This document shows positions 28,459 to 36,437 of a DNA stretch of 64,000 nucleotides, one piece after another. The notes under the pieces were generated by a model. The model saw only the letters and a program-made list of their open reading frames with translations. It ran no database searches and was not told the origin of the DNA. Within the stretch, counting starts at the first letter, position 1, and the number at the start of each line of letters is the position of its first letter. Position numbers and translations under genes: made by a program. Source of the DNA: Candidatus Moranbacteria bacterium RIFOXYA12_FULL_35_19. Its GTDB lineage: Bacteria; Patescibacteriota; Minisyncoccia; Moranbacterales; UBA2206. The DNA lies in contig MFSE01000021.1 of assembly GCA_001784805.1 (NCBI GenBank), forward strand, positions 4,241 through 68,240, given 5' to 3'.

Positions 28459-29307
28459 ATGAAAAAAGAAAAAAATAATATTGAAAATGATAGTCAAATT
28501 GCTATTTTTAGAGGCAAGAAGATTAGGAAAATTATTTTTCAAAAAGAATGGTGGTTTTCAGTGGTGGATATCGTGGGCGTATTAACGGGGAGTGTAGATG
28601 CGGGAGCTTATTGGAGAAAGTTAAAACAACGACTAATAGAAGAAGGAAGTGAAGTCGTGACATTTTGTCACGGGTTGAAGCTAGAGGCTCCTGATGGCAA
28701 GATGCGAGAAGCTGATTGTGCTAATACTGAAGGAATGTTTAGGATTATTCAGTCTATTCCTTCTCCAAAAGCTGAACCAATGAAGCGTTGGCTGGCTCGG
28801 GTCGGTTATGAAAGAATTCAGGAAATTGAAGATCCAGAATTGGCAACCAAAAGAACAAAAATATTATACAAACTCAAAGGCTATCCTGACGATTGGATCG
28901 AAAAAAGAATGCGCGGGATTGCGGTGCGAGAAGAATTGACGGACGAATGGCAAAAACGCGGAGCGCGAGAGCAAAAAGATTATGAAATTTTAACGGCGGA
29001 AATAACACGGGCGACTTTTGGAATTACGCCATCGGAATACAAGAAGCACAAAGGGCTGAAAAGAGAAAATTTGCGTGATCATATGGATGATTTTGAATTG
29101 ATCTTGACTATGCTAGGAGAACGCACCACGACTGAAATTCATCGCACTAATGATTCTAAAGGCGTGCCAAGGCTCAAAGATGACGCTAGGGTTGGCGGAC
29201 AAATTGCCGGTTCAGCCCGAGCGCAAATAGAGAGAAAGCTCAAAAGATCAATTGTGTCAAAAAAGAATTTTTTGAAAAATAATAATCGCAAAAAAATAAA
29301 AAAATAA
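28459..29307 (+). CDS. BRO-N domain (phage antirepressor-like) protein
   Basis: FRGKKIRKIIFQKEWWFSVVDIVGVL...EGMFRIIQSIPSPKAEPMKRWLARV fits the BRO-N pattern; basic C-terminal tail. Confidence 0.6.
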   Translation: MKKEKNNIENDSQIAIFRGKKIRKIIFQKEWWFSVVDIVGVLTGSVDAGAYWRKLKQRLIEEGSEVVTFCHGLKLEAPDGKMREADCANTEGMFRIIQSIPSPKAEPMKRWLARVGYERIQEIEDPELATKRTKILYKLKGYPDDWIEKRMRGIAVREELTDEWQKRGAREQKDYEILTAEITRATFGITPSEYKKHKGLKRENLRDHMDDFELILTMLGERTTTEIHRTNDSKGVPRLKDDARVGGQIAGSARAQIERKLKRSIVSKKNFLKNNNRKKIKK

Positions 29308-29352: not shown

Positions 29353-31299
29353 ATGGAAAACCCCAATTTTCTCAAACAAAAATTCAATCTTCACAATGCT
29401 AAAGAAGTCAAGGCGGCGGCTAAGCACCCTGATGAAAAAATTCCCAACAATCCAGATGACCAAATCCAAAATTATCTGAATCGTTTGGAAAACTTAGTCA
29501 TCGATTCGGAAAAGAAACAAAAAAGAAAAATGCTTGACGGAGAGCAACGCCCACGAGCTCTTTTTCTTCTGCGAGAAATGCTCCTGAATAAATATGTAAG
29601 ACAAAATAAAGAAAAAATGGCGGAGGGTGCCGTTAGAGTGGAAGAGCGAGCGGCCAGAGAATTGGGAATTGACGCGCATTATGGCGAAGATGAAATTGAA
29701 CAAAGAGGCAATATTGCAGTTAGTGATTTGGAAAAATCATTAGATAATTGGATAACTTATCTCACTGATGCTAACGAATCATATCCGACTTGGTTTCGTT
29801 ACTATGCTTTTCGTAGCATTTTAGGTCTTGGCGATTATGATAAAGACAAAGGAGAATTCCCTAATCGTTCTCAAGGTACAGCTAAACTTTTTCCTGATAT
29901 TGATCGAGGAGCTTTGGCTTACATCCGAGATATCATTGAAGCGGAAAAAGATCCAATAATTTTGGAAAGACTAAAAAAAGCCCAACAAGCTAATCAAACT
30001 CCCGAAGATCAACAAATCACCAAGGAAAAAGCTGAAAAATTTGCCAAACTTTCTTTTGCCAAGCAATATAAAGAAGGAATCAAGCAAGCTGGCGAAATTA
30101 CTCCCGAAATGCGAGAGATTACCGAAGGCAAGTGGGTGAAATATCAAAAAGATACTGATCCCACCGCTCTTTGGGTAAGCTTGCAAAACAAAGGTACAGC
30201 TTGGTGCACGAAAGGTTTTGCCACTGCCGAAACTCAACTGCAAGGCGGAGATTTTTATGTTTATTACACTCTCGACAAACAAGGCAAACCAACTATTCCG
30301 AGAATTGCCATCAGAATGCAAGACAATCAAATTTTTGAAACTCGTGGTGTTTCTGATAATCAACAAAATCTTGAAAGCAATATGATTGACATTGCCGAAA
30401 AGAAAATGGATGAACTTCCTGGTAAAGAAAAATACAAAAAAACTTCTGCTGATATGAAACAACTGACTGAAATTGAAAAGAAAACCAAATCTAATCAAGA
30501 ATTAACCAAGGAAGAATTAGTTTTTCTTTATGAAATAGATGATAAAATTCAAGGTTTTGGATATAATGAAGACCCAAGAATAAAAGAGATTAGGGAGCAA
30601 AGAAAACCAAATATCCAAAAAGACGCATCAATCATTCTTGAATGTGAATCCAATCAAATCGCCAATAAACCAGAAGACATCAATGAAAATACCAAGGCAT
30701 ATATTGGAGAACTAAAATCAGAAATTTTCGAATCAATTCAAAAATATAACATTGAAAATATTTATACCTCATTTCCTGAAGGTAAAATAGAAAAATTTGA
30801 GATGGAACTAGGAGGAAGAACAAAACCAGAAATTGAAAGTGAATTGGAAAAAAGAAAAAAAGCAGAGGGAGATGAAAAAATATACACTTCTGATTATGCT
30901 GAAAGTATGCTAAAAAAACCAGAATTTTTTGTGCAAGAAAAAAAAGAACAATCCAGTTTCGTTAAAATAAAAGTAGGAGATCTCGGTTTTCCTAATGGAG
31001 CAACTGTGCAAGAAATTTATGAAAAAGCCGAAAAACTAGGCTTGGAACTGTGTCCACCAGAAACAGGACCAACAATCAGATTGGATTATGAGAAAATTTT
31101 TCAAAAAGAACAACCAAGAAGAGAATATTTTTGGATTGCGATGAAACAAATAGCCGGCTCTGACGGCTATCCGAGCGTGTTCCGTGTGGGTCGCGGCGAT
31201 GGCGGCGAGTCGTGGCTGGGTGACCGTTGGGCGCGGCCTGACGGCGAGTGGGGTGCTGGCATTGGGGTTGTCTTTCGCCTCCGCAAATTTGAAACTTAA
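29353..31299 (+). CDS. DGR target protein with C-terminal C-type-lectin-like (DUF1566/FGE-like) variable domain
   Basis: The C-terminus ...SDGYPSVFRVGRGDGGESWLGDRWARPDGEWGAGIGVVFRLRK is encoded by VR; no signal peptide; N-terminal 590 aa unassigned. Confidence 0.8.
   Translation: MENPNFLKQKFNLHNAKEVKAAAKHPDEKIPNNPDDQIQNYLNRLENLVIDSEKKQKRKMLDGEQRPRALFLLREMLLNKYVRQNKEKMAEGAVRVEERAARELGIDAHYGEDEIEQRGNIAVSDLEKSLDNWITYLTDANESYPTWFRYYAFRSILGLGDYDKDKGEFPNRSQGTAKLFPDIDRGALAYIRDIIEAEKDPIILERLKKAQQANQTPEDQQITKEKAEKFAKLSFAKQYKEGIKQAGEITPEMREITEGKWVKYQKDTDPTALWVSLQNKGTAWCTKGFATAETQLQGGDFYVYYTLDKQGKPTIPRIAIRMQDNQIFETRGVSDNQQNLESNMIDIAEKKMDELPGKEKYKKTSADMKQLTEIEKKTKSNQELTKEELVFLYEIDDKIQGFGYNEDPRIKEIREQRKPNIQKDASIILECESNQIANKPEDINENTKAYIGELKSEIFESIQKYNIENIYTSFPEGKIEKFEMELGGRTKPEIESELEKRKKAEGDEKIYTSDYAESMLKKPEFFVQEKKEQSSFVKIKVGDLGFPNGATVQEIYEKAEKLGLELCPPETGPTIRLDYEKIFQKEQPRREYFWIAMKQIAGSDGYPSVFRVGRGDGGESWLGDRWARPDGEWGAGIGVVFRLRKFET
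31154..31286 (+). repeat. DGR variable repeat (VR)
   Basis: 133 nt aligning to 31628-31760; about 22 mismatches, every one at an adenine of TR. Confidence 0.9.
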
Positions 31300-31315
31300 A
31301 TTTTTTGAATTTTTG

Positions 31316-31333: not shown

Positions 31334-31627
31334 TGAAACTTTGAAACTTTATTACTTTGACACTTTCTTTCGCGCGAATTTTTTGGTATCATTAATTTGG
31401 ATTGGTTGCATCGAACGGTTACGACTTTTCGAGACCTTTCTCGCAAGCGCAAATTGAGAGCGCGGACGGTCAAGACTTTCCGCGGAGGATTTGCGTCAAG
31501 TTTTCTAAAAAGAAAAAATTTGGTGTGCTGTGCTGGTGGATTTTAGATTCCAAATAAAATACAGCGTTGCTCCTTTTGCCAAATAGCGAATTGAGTAGGC
31601 AGTGGAATAGATGGCATGGCATACAAA

Positions 31628-31760
31628 ACCGACTCTGACGGCTATCCGAACGTGTTCAATGTGAATCGCAACGATGACGGCAAGTCGTGGCTGAATGACA
31701 ATTGGGCGAAGCCTGACAACAAGTGGAATGCTGACAATGAGATTGTCTTTCGCCTCCGAA
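31628..31760 (+). repeat. DGR template repeat (TR)
   Basis: Adenine-rich (AAC/AAT codons in the VR frame); ends with gtctttcgcctccgaaag (IMH*-like); lies in a locally GC-richer, probably structured transcript region. Confidence 0.9.
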
Positions 31761-31778
31761 AGTATTTTCTTTTCCGCA

Positions 31779-32129
31779 TTATTCAAAAGTGCGGTTTTTC
31801 TTTGGCGAATTTTCCAGTTTATTTTTCCAGCCCCATAACATCCTGCCAACTTCTTCAAGTTTGAGTGCAATTTCTTCGTATTGTTTATGAGAAATCAGTT
31901 TTGCGTCCCATGCTACGGAAATGATGAACTTAAGTTTGTCCAAAAGGAAAATACATTCAGAAATTTTTTCAATCTTTTCTTCTTTTTTGGAAAAATAAGT
32001 GATATAGCCAAGTTCTAATAAATCAAGAAGTTTATTTTCAATTCTTGCGCCGATGGTGTAGCGCGCATTTTTCTGTATATGAGGAACAATATTAATCCAA
32101 ATCAAATATCCCTCTTTGATTCTTTGCAA
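31779..32129 (-). CDS. avd: Avd-like accessory variability determinant (four-helix-bundle, TIGR02436-like)
   Basis: 116 aa; the C-terminus ISHKQYEEIALKLEEVGRMLWGWKNKL matches the family pattern ..EE.L....EI.KML.GL; opposite strand to TR/RT and overlaps the RT start by 14 nt. Confidence 0.6.
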   Translation of the reverse strand: MQRIKEGYLIWINIVPHIQKNARYTIGARIENKLLDLLELGYITYFSKKEEKIEKISECIFLLDKLKFIISVAWDAKLISHKQYEEIALKLEEVGRMLWGWKNKLENSPKKNRTFE

Positions 32130-33192
32130 AATCGAAGCATTATTCGAGAGAGAGAGAGAGAGTAAAAGGCTTTTCCATATTTATGATGATATCATCTCTT
32201 TTGAAAATTTGCTAATTTCGTGGCAAGAATTTTTGTGTGGAAAAAGAAAACGTAAAGATGTGGCAGAATTTTCTTTGAATTTTATGGACAATATTTTCGC
32301 GCTTCATAAAGAACTCAAAGAAAGAACTTATCAACACGGTGGATATCAAGCTTTCAAAATTAGCGATCCAAAACCGAGAGATATTCATAAGGCCAGTGTT
32401 CGTGATCGACTAGTACATCACGCTATTTATCGGATTGTATACCCATATTTTGAGGAGAAATTCATTTTTGATTCTTATTCTTGCCGAATCAAAAAAGGCA
32501 CGCATAAAGCGATAAATCGTTTTCGATATTTTAGCCTAAAAGTTTCAAAAAATAATACTCAAACTTGTTGGATTTTGAAATGCGACATCAGAAAATTTTT
32601 CGCCAATATTGATCACCAAGTTCTCAAAAATATTTTAGCCAAAAATATCGTGGATGAAAATGTTTTATGGCTTATGACGCAAGTTATTGATAGTTTTACC
32701 TCGCCCCAGCCCTCTCCTTGTAAAGGAGAGGGGATTAAAGGTCTTCCGCTGGGCAATTTAACTAGCCAGCTTCTGGTGAATATTTATATGAATGAATTTG
32801 ATCAATATGCGAAAAGAGAATTAAAAACGAAATATTATATCCGCTACGCTGATGACTTTGTGATTTTTCACGAAAACAAAAATTATTTAGAAGATCTTAT
32901 CTCTGAAATTTCTAAATTTTTGGAAAATAAACTCAAACTTTCTCTCCATCCGGATAAAGTTAGCATAAATACGCTATCTTCGGGCGTTGATTTTCTTGGC
33001 TGGGTGAATTTTTCGAAACATAGAATTTTACGGACAAGCACAAAAAGAAGGATGATAAAAAAAATTAAGAAAAATACCACGCCAGAAGCAGTTGCTTCTT
33101 ATTTGGGTTTACTTTTGCATGGAAATACATATAAATTGGCAAATAAAATAACAAAGCTCTATTTTGAAAAGAAGAAGATTTCCAATATTTGA
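32116..33192 (+). CDS. DGR reverse transcriptase
   Basis: NLL..W.EF..GKRKRKDVAEF N-terminal region, RDRLVHHA, CRIKKGTH, LPLGNLTSQLLVNIY (DGR-specific SQ motif), IRYADDFVIF. Confidence 0.9.
   Translation: MILCKIEALFERERESKRLFHIYDDIISFENLLISWQEFLCGKRKRKDVAEFSLNFMDNIFALHKELKERTYQHGGYQAFKISDPKPRDIHKASVRDRLVHHAIYRIVYPYFEEKFIFDSYSCRIKKGTHKAINRFRYFSLKVSKNNTQTCWILKCDIRKFFANIDHQVLKNILAKNIVDENVLWLMTQVIDSFTSPQPSPCKGEGIKGLPLGNLTSQLLVNIYMNEFDQYAKRELKTKYYIRYADDFVIFHENKNYLEDLISEISKFLENKLKLSLHPDKVSINTLSSGVDFLGWVNFSKHRILRTSTKRRMIKKIKKNTTPEAVASYLGLLLHGNTYKLANKITKLYFEKKKISNI
32146..32162 (+). repeat. (GA)8 dinucleotide microsatellite inside the 5' end of the RT ORF
   Basis: gagagagagagagagag within codons 11-16 of the annotated RT start. 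Confidence 0.9.
32710..32733 (+). repeat. GC palindrome (ccctctcctt-gtaa-aggagaggg) in-frame in the RT, just before the SQ motif
   Basis: Encodes SPQPSPCKGEG. The Bordetella-type RT has no equivalent residues here. Same ccctctc/gagaggg termini as elements in miaA, dnaE and 33265-33319. Confidence 0.7.
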
Positions 33193-33264: not shown

Positions 33265-33319
33265 TCCCTCTCTGTCTCGATGAGTACATTGAGACATCTC
33301 TCCCTAAGGGAGAGAAGGA
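33265..33319. repeat. GC-rich compound palindromic element (family 1), intergenic copy
   Basis: tccctctctgtctcgatgagtacattgagacatctctccctaagggagagaagga. Confidence 0.75.
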
Positions 33320-33332
33320 TAATAGAAAATCT

Positions 33333-34904
33333 ATGTACGACATTTTAATTAAAAACGGAAAGATAATTGATGGCACGGGGAAGCTGGGGTTTTTTGCAGA
33401 TGTTGCGATCAAAGAAGATAAGATTATAAAGATTGGCGAATTGCATAATGAAAAGGGAGAAATTGAAATTGATGCCATGGGAAAAATTGTTTGTCCGGGG
33501 TTTGTGGATGTGAATAATCATAGCGATACTTTTTGGCAGATATTTTTGAATCCTGATTTGGAAAGTCTGGCCTATCAAGGCATTACCACGATTATCGGCG
33601 GAGCCTGCGGATCTTCGCTGGCACCACTCGCAACTCCTCTGACCATTGAATCAATTCAAAAATGGGTAGATCTTAGAAATATAAATTTTAGCTGGTTGTC
33701 CATGAAAGAATTTCTAAAAATAATGGAGGTTAAAAAAATATCAGTTAATTTTGCAACATTAGTGGGTCATGAAAATTTACGGCGAGGGATATTGAAAAAC
33801 GAATTGCGTTCGCTTAATCCAAAAGAAATAAAATTTATTGAAAAAACATTTCAGGATTCTTTGCAGGCAGGTGCGCTCGGACTTTCTACGGGTCTTGTTT
33901 ACACTCATGCTCGACTAGCGACAAGTGAGGAGCTGATGAATCTCGCTAATATTGTTAAAAAATATGACGGAGTTTATGTAACGCATATTCGCGATGAAGC
34001 CAGAGAAGTTATTGAATCGGTCGAAGAGGCGATTAAAATTGGCCGAGAAGTCAAGATGAAACTACATATCGCTCATCTCAAGATAATGGGAAAAGAGAAT
34101 TGGAAAAAAATGAATGAAGTTTTGGAACATATTTCCTTAGCTAAAAAATCTGGAATAGATATCTCTTTTGATGTGTATCCTTATACCAATACCGGTTCGG
34201 TATTGTATGCAATGCTTCCAAGTTGGGTAGCGGAAGGCGGGAGAAAAATAATGCTTCATCGTCTAAAAGACCCAGCTATTCGGATAAAAGTTATAACAGA
34301 AATGAAAAAATCCGGTTTTGAATATGAAAAAATTGAAATTGCATCCAGCCTGATGGATAAAACTTTGACAAGCCGAAAAATAACGGAAATTGCAATTTCG
34401 CAAAATAAAACAGTGGAAGAAGCGATTATTGATGTTTTAATTGCTTCAGAAGGTCGAGTAATAACTTCCATGGAAATTTTAAGTGAAGAAAATGTGAGAA
34501 TGGCAATTGCTCATCCGCTTTCAATGATTGCGTCCAACGGAGCTGGGTACAGCTTGAATCATGCAAAAACTGGAGAGCTGGTTCATCCAAGATCATTTGG
34601 CACATACATCAAAGTTTTGGAAAAATATGTTTTAGAGGAAAAAATAATTTCTTTTGAAGAAGCTATTCGAAAAATGACCTCGTTTCCGGCAGAAAAATTT
34701 GGAGTTGTCAAAAGAGGAAAACTGGCAAAAGGATTTTTCGCTGATGTTTTAGTTTTAGATAAAAATAAAATTTCTGCTCCAGCCGATAAGGAACGACCAT
34801 ACCAATATTCACAAGGAGTTGATTATTCTTTGGTAAATGGTAAAATGGTTATTCAGGAAGGGAAATATATGGGGATGAGGAATGGGAAAGTAATAAGGCG
34901 GTAA
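33333..34904 (+). CDS. amidohydrolase family, N-acyl-D-amino-acid deacylase (D-aminoacylase)-like
   Basis: MYDILIKNGKIIDGTG...VCPGFVDVNNHSD metal-binding HxH-type motif and overall architecture. Confidence 0.8.
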   Translation: MYDILIKNGKIIDGTGKLGFFADVAIKEDKIIKIGELHNEKGEIEIDAMGKIVCPGFVDVNNHSDTFWQIFLNPDLESLAYQGITTIIGGACGSSLAPLATPLTIESIQKWVDLRNINFSWLSMKEFLKIMEVKKISVNFATLVGHENLRRGILKNELRSLNPKEIKFIEKTFQDSLQAGALGLSTGLVYTHARLATSEELMNLANIVKKYDGVYVTHIRDEAREVIESVEEAIKIGREVKMKLHIAHLKIMGKENWKKMNEVLEHISLAKKSGIDISFDVYPYTNTGSVLYAMLPSWVAEGGRKIMLHRLKDPAIRIKVITEMKKSGFEYEKIEIASSLMDKTLTSRKITEIAISQNKTVEEAIIDVLIASEGRVITSMEILSEENVRMAIAHPLSMIASNGAGYSLNHAKTGELVHPRSFGTYIKVLEKYVLEEKIISFEEAIRKMTSFPAEKFGVVKRGKLAKGFFADVLVLDKNKISAPADKERPYQYSQGVDYSLVNGKMVIQEGKYMGMRNGKVIRR

Positions 34905-35039
34905 AGAAAATTTTTAATTTGAAATTTTGTAATTTTTAGTTAATTTGAAATTTTTAATATTAAAAATTCATTAAAAATTTCTAATTAAAAACTAAAAATT
35001 AAATAACAGTAACTTAATTTAATGGAAAATATATAGGAA

Positions 35040-36437
35040 ATGGATATCATTGATCTAAAAAACAAGCGAATTACAGTTATGGGTTTGGGTCTTCATGGAG
35101 GCGGTGTGGGAACCGTCCGTTTTTTATTTGAAGTGGGAGCGAAAATTACGGTAACGGATTTGAAATCCAAGGAAGAATTAGCCTCTTCGCTTGAGAAATT
35201 AAAAGATTTGAAAAATATTTCTTATGTTTTTCAACAACATCGTCCGGAAGATTTTCTTAGTGCTGATATGGTAATAAAAAATCCAAGTGCGCCATGGAAC
35301 AATAAGCAAATAAAGTTGGCGTTGGAAAATAAAATTCCAGTGGAAATTGATTCCAGTCTTTTTTTCAAATTATGTAAAAATCCAATAATCGGTGTTACGG
35401 GCACCAAGGGAAAAACAACTACCGCCACTTTGATTTATGAAATTTTGCGTTTAGCCGGAAAAAATCCAATCAAAGTCGGCATTGGTCAAACTTCTGTATT
35501 GGATAAACTCAAAGAGCTTAAAAAAGATTCAGCTGTTGTTTTTGAGCTTTCCAGCTGGCGATTATCTGCTTTGGGAAAAAATAAAATTAGTCCAGAAACG
35601 GCGTTAATTACCAACATTTATCCAGATCATTTGAATTATTATAAATCAATGGATGAATATATTACGGATAAAAAAAATATTTTTCTTTATCAGAAAAATG
35701 AAAATAGTTGTGTGATAAATAATGATAATGAATTGATCAAAAAATTTGAAGGAGAGATAAAATCAAAATTGATTAAGTTTTCAAAAAATAAAATTTCAGA
35801 AGGCAGAGCGGTTTATCTGGACAAGGGTGTGATTTATTTCAATGACGGAATGGATGAAAAAAAGATTGTAGAGGTAAGCGAAATAAAAATAAAAGGCGAG
35901 CATAATTTGGAAAATATTATGGCCGCCTCGGCTGTTTCTTTGGCTATCGGAATAAAAATAGAAATAATTCAAAAAGCCATTAAAGAATTTTCTGGAATAG
36001 CACATCGGCTGGAATTGGTGCGAGAATTAGATGGAATAAAATATATAAATGATACGGCAGCAACCACTCCGGAAGCGGGAATTTCTGCGCTTAAATCTTT
36101 CTCGGAGCCAATAATTCTAATAGCTGGAGGTTCAGATAAAAATTTAGATATGACTGAATTTTCTAAAATTATTTGTAAGAAGGTAAAAGGCGTGGTTTTT
36201 TTGAAAGGTGTGGCGACGGAAAAAATAATTACAGAAATGAAAAAAAATGATAGTTGTCTAGATGCAGAAAATCTTAGAATAGTTGAATCAATGGAAAAAG
36301 CGGTGGAATTGGCAAGGTCGGTGGCGGAAAAAGGCGATATAATTTTGCTTTCTCCTGGTTCGGCCAGCTTTGGATTATTCATTAATGAATTTGATCGAGG
36401 GGATAAATTTAAGGAGGTGGTGGGAAAATTGAAATAA
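35040..36437 (+). CDS. murD: UDP-N-acetylmuramoylalanine--D-glutamate ligase
   Basis: GVTGTKGKTTT P-loop; Mur ligase middle and C-terminal domains; N-terminal Rossmann GLGLHGGG. Confidence 0.9.
   Translation: MDIIDLKNKRITVMGLGLHGGGVGTVRFLFEVGAKITVTDLKSKEELASSLEKLKDLKNISYVFQQHRPEDFLSADMVIKNPSAPWNNKQIKLALENKIPVEIDSSLFFKLCKNPIIGVTGTKGKTTTATLIYEILRLAGKNPIKVGIGQTSVLDKLKELKKDSAVVFELSSWRLSALGKNKISPETALITNIYPDHLNYYKSMDEYITDKKNIFLYQKNENSCVINNDNELIKKFEGEIKSKLIKFSKNKISEGRAVYLDKGVIYFNDGMDEKKIVEVSEIKIKGEHNLENIMAASAVSLAIGIKIEIIQKAIKEFSGIAHRLELVRELDGIKYINDTAATTPEAGISALKSFSEPIILIAGGSDKNLDMTEFSKIICKKVKGVVFLKGVATEKIITEMKKNDSCLDAENLRIVESMEKAVELARSVAEKGDIILLSPGSASFGLFINEFDRGDKFKEVVGKLK

Follow-up and report, generated by a model that had tools for sequence, protein, structure and literature searches.

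A diversity-generating retroelement (DGR) in a 64,000-nt stretch of contig MFSE01000021.1 from Candidatus Moranbacteria bacterium RIFOXYA12_FULL_35_19 (hereafter the window) raises the question of whether a simple-sequence repeat could control when such an element mutates its target. Among natural systems that diversify proteins, DGRs are the most powerful known. They are particularly common in Candidate Phyla Radiation (CPR) bacteria, and the control of their activity is largely open. Here, a (GA)8G repeat (32146-32162) lies at the centre of the junction between the reverse transcriptase (RT) gene and the avd gene on the opposite strand. The first-pass annotation of this stretch had suggested that the repeat is a phase-variation switch for mutagenic retrohoming. 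Our analysis lends support to this suggestion, the regulatory effect being what the sequence points to, and we consider it fairly probable that (GA)n works as a switch through strand slippage: in every class of related loci it would set the frame in which Avd is translated, and in the class with GA repeats that of the RT as well.

The locus is a genuine and complete DGR, with an RT, Avd, a target gene that carries a variable region (VR) at its 3' end, and adenine-specific differences between this VR and a template region (TR). The target open reading frame (ORF) encodes 648 aa on the plus strand (29353-31299); its VR (about 31153-31287) aligns to a TR located 475 nt downstream on the same strand (about 31628-31762), and all mismatches between the two are located at TR adenines. 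Exact-protein look-ups recovered the locus on about 20 public contigs, including the protein records KKP80311/2 and OGI32465/6 (Candidatus Moranbacteria, Rifle groundwater). Over 13 kb, the only differences between one of these contigs (L001/L013) and the window are 14 substitutions and, at 31182-31183, an insertion of 2 nt. All of these differences fall within the VR, and 14/14 substitutions are at positions that are adenine in the TR, which argues that the DGR has recently been active.

The repeat stands out in its surroundings: (GA)8G is the sole dinucleotide run of more than 4 units in the window, and dinucleotide runs never exceeded 6 units in 300 first-order Markov simulations, in agreement with the earlier remark that such tracts are rare here. 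It forms codons 11-16 (ERERES) of the RT ORF as annotated, a plus-strand frame of 358 aa with a TTG start (32116-33192; RVT_1, E=9.6e-25) in which the RT body begins at about 32163. On the minus strand, the Avd body is an ORF of 116 aa from TTG 32129 (31779-32129), matched by Pfam bAvd (E=7.6e-15, 55.8 bits, above the 40-bit cut-off) and by NCBIfam DivGenRetAVD (59-61 bits, under the 80-bit equivalog cut-off). Both ORFs are thus TTG-initiated, and they overlap by 14 nt (32116-32129) in the ORF list and the GenBank record, with which the annotation of GCA_001784915.1 agrees. The first-pass annotation had correctly described this antisense overlap and the position of the tract within the first 16 RT codons. 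It had also observed that no further in-frame ATG precedes the NLL motif, and this holds more broadly, as ATG, GTG and TTG are all absent from the RT frame between 32116 and ENLL. The alternative downstream RT start that it had raised was looked for as well, and there is no canonical one 3' of the tract.

On either side of the repeat, the DNA encodes a leader that begins with ATG. The RT leader ORF (32079-32165, plus strand) starts at ATG 32079 and reads MRNNINPNQISLFDSLQNRSII(ER)n; with (GA)8 it stops at TAA 32163-32165. The Avd leader (32163-32178, minus strand) starts at ATG 32178-32176 and continues with EKPF. Between the tract and TTG 32129, the minus-strand codons SNNASI (32130-32145) are open and their pattern xxNAS-I is kept in relatives; they are part of Avd when the ATG leader is in frame. 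The tract itself gives ER in any plus-strand frame and LS in any minus-strand frame, and none of these frames contains a stop codon.

To read out the starts of both genes, we simulated tract lengths in silico, and three states emerged. In state A (n = 8, the window), the RT is in frame with TTG 32116 only and Avd has only TTG 32129. In state B (n = 9, 6 or 12), the RT body is joined to ATG 32079 through the leader MRNNINPNQISLFDSLQNRSII, giving 371 aa, and Avd is joined to ATG 32178 (MEKPFT(LS)n…), giving 133 aa; at n = 9 both proteins are intact and ATG-initiated. In state C (n = 7 or 10), no start codon is left for the RT, and Avd again has only TTG 32129. The prediction that a slip of one unit in either direction would frameshift the RT therefore holds for a loss, as (GA)7 removes every RT start, and fails for a gain, which does not kill the RT and instead connects it and Avd to their conserved ATGs. 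This coupling follows from the geometry of the junction: ATG 32178 is the exact antisense of the CAT codon of RT His21, and ATG 32079 that of the CAT codon of Avd His17. Because each leader is codon-in-phase antisense to the body of the other gene, a single tract-length class joins both ATGs. Measured from these ATGs, avd and RT overlap by about 100 nt with the tract at the centre. As a gain of one unit joins both ATG leaders and (GA)7 or (GA)10 removes all RT starts, (GA)8 is more likely an attenuated or off allele than an on allele. Gene callers report the 133-aa Avd on contigs with (GA)9, and the NCBIfam Avd profile aligns from model position 2 on this form versus position 5 on the TTG form, that is, three positions further upstream.

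Repeat number is not invariant in this species, and an invariant number is what the first-pass annotation had named as evidence against a switch. We fetched contigs via the neighbouring amidohydrolase gene, a look-up that is independent of RT and Avd gene calling and that gave the first (GA)9G contig. The (GA)9G allele is present in contigs L020 and L181-L183, whose DNA is otherwise 100% identical to the window. The 133-aa Avd, which is specific to (GA)9, was found on three contigs from three assemblies (ERZ4902911, ERZ28564294/SAMN03203004 and ERZ909591/SRR1658472), and the sister run SRR1658473 carries (GA)8. In total, three assemblies have (GA)9 and about 16-19 contigs have (GA)8; apart from the repeat, their DNA does not differ over 1.8-3.9 kb. 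The protein forms predicted for (GA)6 or (GA)12 of this species had no match by exact look-up. On identical DNA, the RT has been called as 310, 302 and 358 aa.

The (GA)9 contigs L181-L183 are all short. Towards the TR they end either at 31301, where the target gene and VR have their 3' edge, or at 31706 inside the TR, and their other ends lie at 33488-35225, two of them near a strain-variable stretch at the 5' end of murD; several (GA)8 contigs run through the VR for more than 100 kb. These breaks could fit a higher VR heterogeneity in the (GA)9 sample, and equally low coverage or mixed strains.

Beyond this species, we compared 160 related loci for which DNA was fetched, drawn from at least 1170 tblastn-confirmed matches (at least 580 and at least 590 in two scans), with RTs 58-84% identical. 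The best 120 RT homologues among the matches listed (63-80% identical) are RVT_1 proteins, mostly RTs of CPR DGRs, and contain an (ER)n stretch of variable length. Their N-terminal extensions 5' of (ER)n, where calls are not truncated, are of two kinds (MILCKIEAL… and MRNNINPNQISLFD…) that match the two upstream frames of the window, so leader-bearing RTs are present among the homologues. A simple repeat other than A/T lies directly upstream of the RT His21 codon in 133/140 loci versus 1.6% of the 5722 windows that were taken from these loci as controls. Lineages differ in the motif that they carry: among non-redundant loci, GA tracts of 10-43 nt, or (GA)5-21, occur in 53 (the GA class), G6-12 in 73 (the poly-G class), GT in 2 and CT in 1.

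Repeat length varies in the relatives too. A Woesebacteria relative has (GA)9, (GA)10 and (GA)12 in contigs of different samples, which are identical in all else over 6.2 kb; exact-protein look-up placed the three alleles on 5, 2 and 3 contigs. In 9 of 10 RT clusters formed at 90% identity, members vary in repeat length or N-terminal form, the variants being whole ER units, leader-form versus A-form N-termini (the latter starting at the annotated TTG), one glycine in a poly-G case, or truncated calls. For one poly-G relative (P0115) only two contigs were informative, and both have G10. A relative without a repeat (P0037; L184-L192) shows no variation at the junction in 9 contigs. Its Avd and RT ATGs stand back-to-back without overlap in the palindrome CATATG (CAT|ATG), and its Avd starts MTNNISILERIKE; from its sequence, this locus is a natural 'unswitched' version of the cassette. 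In many poly-G relatives (among them L030, L038, L048, L076, L032 and L050), a perfect GC-rich hairpin of 6-9 bp abuts the G-run about 25 nt 5' of it, within the first Avd codons (e.g. cttttgcc-agga-ggcaaaag and agcgcc-gag-ggcgct).

Comparison of the loci indicates that the starts that are conserved are those on the far sides of the repeat. An RT leader ATG is located 63-71 nt upstream of the tract, in a frame open to the tract, in 53/53 GA-class loci in any state. As a control, we took the same frame deeper in Avd, which stays open over 20 or more codons in 39% and contains an ATG in 13%; frame C is closed in 100%. Avd residue 17, whose codon lies opposite the RT leader ATG, is His encoded by CAT in 52/52 GA-class loci, versus His in only 27% of poly-G loci, where the RT has its own ATG after the tract in 57/73 cases. 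Synonymous codon identity tells the same story: in the GA class it is 0.635 in the overlap versus 0.45-0.51 elsewhere in Avd, with a peak at codons 4-9, and there is no such rise in the overlap of the poly-G class. On the Avd side, 53/53 GA-class and 61/73 poly-G loci have an open leader frame between the ATG antisense to His21 and the tract; the other two frames of this stretch are open in 8-18% of poly-G loci. We therefore conclude from sequence comparison that the conserved ATGs of both genes are on the far sides of the repeat, and that the native starts are probably ATG 32079 for the RT and ATG 32178 for Avd, rather than the annotated TTGs with their 14-nt overlap. The earlier proposal to settle the RT start by homology thus leads to a conserved ATG upstream of the tract, and the annotated TTG 32116 is probably not native.

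The nearer candidates were tried and rejected. TTG 32129 is a Leu codon of Avd whose synonymous usage is free: in the GA class, Leu1 is encoded by CTC in 16 loci, TTG in 15 (15/52), CTT in 11 and CTG in 5, with a codon identity of 0.27. The internal Leu9 TTG of Avd is conserved. By a per-column census, an Avd start (ATG, GTG or TTG) lies between the tract and Ile4 in 17/52 GA-class loci, and in 1/52 there is an ATG. TTG 32116 is part of TTTGAT, the Phe-Asp codons of the RT leader, antisense to the constrained Ile4-Lys5 codons of Avd (ATC AAA). A stop codon, TAA or TAG, directly follows the tract in most GA-class loci, and some relatives have an ATG 2 nt after that stop (TAGAATG), an arrangement that looks like translational coupling; in total, 12/53 GA-class loci have an ATG just after the tract. 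A non-canonical RT start at this position was rejected for the window, because the codon concerned, an ATG in some relatives, reads AGG in the window, and AGG is a very poor initiator in bacteria. A conserved RNA or DNA hairpin 5' of the tract was rejected as the cause of the synonymous constraint: RNAalifold returned no structure, and a hand-specified hairpin paired in 85% versus 84% in shuffles, without covariation.

The frame states are mixed among relatives. The 53 GA-class loci comprise 24 in state A, 15 in state B and 14 in state C, not significantly different from uniform (chi-square about 3.4, 2 d.f., p about 0.18, our own estimate), and poly-G loci are distributed 30/19/24. A canonical RT start is lacking in 13 of the 14 loci in state C and in 16 of all 53. 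Such a mixture is typical of contingency loci sampled in on and off states, and conserved leaders combined with a randomised tract length would be the signature of a contingency locus. The repeat has a slip-prone length, its unit number is polymorphic in identical DNA, and each unit changes the frame and start (the last in silico only), as in known loci of this kind.

We propose that the hypermutable (GA)n at the centre of the head-to-head avd/RT overlap would set the frames of both genes together. The RT would start at ATG 32079, inside and antisense to the N-terminal codons of Avd, and be translated through a 22-aa leader and an (ER)n linker into the RT body, and Avd would start at ATG 32178 and read the tract as (LS)n into its own body. 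State B, with both ATGs joined, would be fully on. In state A the ATGs would be cut off from their genes, leaving TTG-initiated RT and Avd whose expression is probably weak or off, and state C, with no start codon for the RT, would be RT-null. Replication slippage would then toggle the RT-Avd complex, and hence mutagenic retrohoming, stochastically and reversibly within the population. In poly-G relatives, in which the RT has its own ATG after the tract, only Avd would be gated. The chances seem to us evenly balanced that, across related CPR/Patescibacteria DGRs, hypermutation is placed in this way under a second stochastic switch, in which one slip toggles Avd and RT together: a bidirectional translational phase-variation device, or 'mutator on demand'.

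It is important to point out that several observations weigh against a frame switch. The three (GA)9 contigs possibly derive from one or two samples assembled three ways, and the sequences compared are phylogenetically related, so that counts such as 52/52 overstate independence. Inspection of the sequence showed no obvious Shine-Dalgarno motif before any candidate start. State B accounts for only 28% of GA-class loci, so that most sampled DGRs would be off or attenuated. The relative without a repeat, together with the 12/53 GA-class loci that have an ATG after the tract, indicates that RT catalysis does not need the leader. Moreover, the VR differs between two samples that are both (GA)8, meaning that diversification went on in a lineage whose consensus allele would be in the off or low state; either state A is leaky via the TTG starts, or the population passed through (GA)9. 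Finally, a near-uniform distribution of states is equally expected from a length-neutral tract, so a function is something that we infer and that these counts do not by themselves establish.

This last point also speaks for an alternative in which the tract is a tolerated, self-perpetuating neutral linker or spacer, RT and Avd start at any available start codon (here TTG 32116 and TTG 32129) or from a non-canonical one, and the leaders exist because protein sequence is conserved on the other strand. In addition to the near-uniform states, the TTG of the A-form does itself result from constraints on the opposite strand, both genes have a TTG that can be used in the window species, and the RT works leaderless in some relatives. 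A neutral linker does not account for the retention of one position in 95% of loci against a background of 1.6%, with one motif replacing another at the same spot. Nor does it agree with the 16/53 GA-class loci that lack a canonical RT start and the 35/52 that lack an Avd start after the tract, or with the AGG codon at the post-tract ATG position of the window. The His17-CAT codon (52/52) and the suppressed synonymous variation are, moreover, specific to the class without a post-tract RT start. We regard a neutral linker as unlikely.

A second possibility is that RNA polymerase slippage, or ribosomal re-pairing by +/-2 nt, on (GA)n or poly-G mixes the frames from any allele, so that RT and Avd would both be produced to some extent at all times and the repeat would tune their dosage in place of an on/off switch. 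The tract would permit this, as it is stop-free in every frame on both strands and a shift of 2 nt lets GAG re-pair perfectly; each of the three frame states is common in relatives, and the VR was diversified in a (GA)8 background. However, neither a known slippery heptamer nor an A/T run is present in the tract, and none of the states is preferred (24 A, 15 B and 14 C) as the one on which a defined frameshift could operate. The length polymorphism at the DNA level is real and frequent, and would be enough for switching alone. Recoding of this kind appears improbable to us.

Thirdly, the tract might act as a nucleic-acid element: a promoter spacer of the hifA/hifB type, a purine-rich ribosome-binding site or structured element in a TR-to-RT RNA, or a DNA structure (H-DNA or G-quadruplex) between divergent units. 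A 9/12 promoter-like match on the minus strand with the tract as its 16-nt spacer, a G-run about 10 nt before the RT ATG in some poly-G loci, resembling a G-rich Shine-Dalgarno sequence, and the GC-rich hairpins that by inspection adjoin the G-run in many poly-G loci would all be in keeping with such a role. The promoter-spacer model was rejected, because homologous GA-class tracts of 10-43 nt are incompatible with a -35/-10 spacer and promoter-like matches (4 found versus 2.7 expected in shuffles) are not above background. A Shine-Dalgarno role is plausible for a poly-G subset only, as the distance from G-run to RT ATG ranges from 9 to about 52 nt and GA, GT and CT are unfit for it; these three motifs have no pairing or Shine-Dalgarno property in common. 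Next to the tract, RNAalifold gave no consensus structure; the hairpin candidate described above neither covaried nor paired beyond the level of shuffles. An element of this type is, in our assessment, quite improbable. That the (GA)8/(GA)9 difference is a sequencing or assembly artefact of a tract that is stable in vivo can hardly be credited: dinucleotide repeats are error-prone in library PCR and the (GA)9 contigs may come from one or two samples, but the same (GA)9 consensus appears in three assemblies next to (GA)8 in a sister run, a second species has three alleles on 5, 2 and 3 contigs, and length variants occur in 9/10 clusters and not in the repeat-less control.

The frame switch that we favour resembles known systems in part. 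Contingency loci with intragenic repeats include Neisseria opa (CTCTT), Haemophilus lic1 (CAAT), Campylobacter poly-G genes and the phase-variable mod 'phasevarions'. As in these, the repeat is near the 5' end of a coding sequence, the unit number sets the frame, the length is polymorphic, and homologues are in mixed frame states. In contrast to them, one repeat here lies inside two divergent overlapping ORFs and would gate the pair together, the product that would be gated is a mutagenesis machine rather than a surface or modification gene, and the hosts are CPR/Patescibacteria. In the hifA/hifB fimbrial switch of Haemophilus influenzae, the divergent promoters overlap and contain (TA)n, which alters the -35/-10 spacing. 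A single repeat between divergent genes may likewise co-regulate both genes here; whereas that switch is transcriptional, tracts of 10-43 nt rule out a spacer in our case and the evidence favours translational frame. As in antisense dual-coding genes, both strands are read in codon-phase, over about 100 nt, and synonymous variation is suppressed; unlike other antisense overlaps, this one is 5'-to-5', each start codon is antisense to a His codon of the other gene, and a frame-neutral repeat lies in the middle.

Compared with the DGR of Bordetella phage BPP-1 (mtd-avd-TR-brt), the locus has the same parts, namely a target with a 3' VR, a TR, Avd, an RT and adenine-specific TR/VR differences. In BPP-1, however, avd, TR and brt form an operon on one strand without a repeat, whereas here avd is antisense and a repeat is present. 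The first-pass annotation had singled out Avd on the opposite strand; the layout is as it described and is not peculiar to this locus, since Avd is antisense to and adjoins the RT in 142/160 related loci and is on the same strand in none. An antisense Avd is thus CPR-typical and not new. The order found here, target(+), TR(+), avd(-), RT(+), may correspond to the B3 sub-architecture, which according to the text of Wu et al., 2018 (PMC5758913) makes up 90% of their CPR DGR set. Intragenic-repeat phase variation is well known as a class of mechanism. What appears new is its use on a DGR, the sharing of one repeat between two divergent ORFs that overlap and whose ATG and His codons are mutually antisense, and the conservation of this arrangement across the related CPR DGRs examined. 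In the literature searched, we found no description that links DGRs to simple-sequence repeats, slipped-strand switching, overlapping avd/RT starts or leaders; the key paper on CPR DGRs (Paul et al., 2017) was outside this search, so that an earlier mention is possible.

Several further features of the locus were observed. Directly 3' of the TR, a consensus scan identified a terminator-like hairpin with a T-run (CCGCATTATTCAAAAGTGCGG then Ts; 31774-31804, plus strand) that overlaps the Avd stop codon, and a second small hairpin is at the 3' end of the TR (31747-31762). The hairpin and T-run suggest that the RNA of the TR may be transcribed separately, as a short transcript that ends before the RT. 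With regard to the VR, the allele of L001/L013 has the 2-nt insertion and a target ORF called as 661 aa versus 648; it represents a frameshifted VR or an assembly chimera of VR variants. Another contig (Logan contig L004/L014) has a 19-nt deletion in the VR (31156-31174) and a 26-nt deletion in the VR-TR spacer (31365-31390) and is identical in the rest; this may reflect either a real deletion or an artefact from assembling a heterogeneous VR. Directly upstream of the target gene, a protein with a Bro-N domain is encoded on the plus strand (28459-29307); this domain is typical of phage and virus anti-repressor-like proteins. Inside the RT gene, a GC-rich perfect palindrome (CCCTCTCCTTGTAAAGGAGAGGG; 32710-32732) codes for a 7-aa loop insertion, SPQPSPC, that is absent from most RT homologues; at this site, relative P0065 contains a larger insertion. 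Palindromes similar to it (CTCTCC…GGAGAG) are located at 33298, 45907 and 57675 in the window, so that this may be a small dispersed palindromic element. In contig L017 (ERZ4902887 NODE_6350), the RT is split into calls of 130 aa and 205 aa (32551-32572), the first 367 nt do not align to the window, and 5 substitutions are grouped at 32559-32572, so that this contig is probably chimeric or recombinant. L016 carries 31 substitutions clustered at the start of a MurD-like gene (35030-35171) and is otherwise identical, a patch of local recombination or strain variation unrelated to the DGR.

If the frame switch is real, it would have consequences for how these elements are annotated and understood. 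It would explain why many RT and Avd genes of CPR DGRs are annotated as truncated or start-less or are called inconsistently, and annotators would gain a rule for finding their true starts. A compact frame switch for two genes could also serve as a design for synthetic biology. CPR hosts are uncultured and their biology is hard to reach, and the idea can be tested from existing metagenomic reads by relating tract length to VR diversity in each sample. For the bacteria themselves, such a switch would mean that only a subpopulation mutates its target protein at any time, thereby limiting the cost of hypermutation while keeping the capacity for it.

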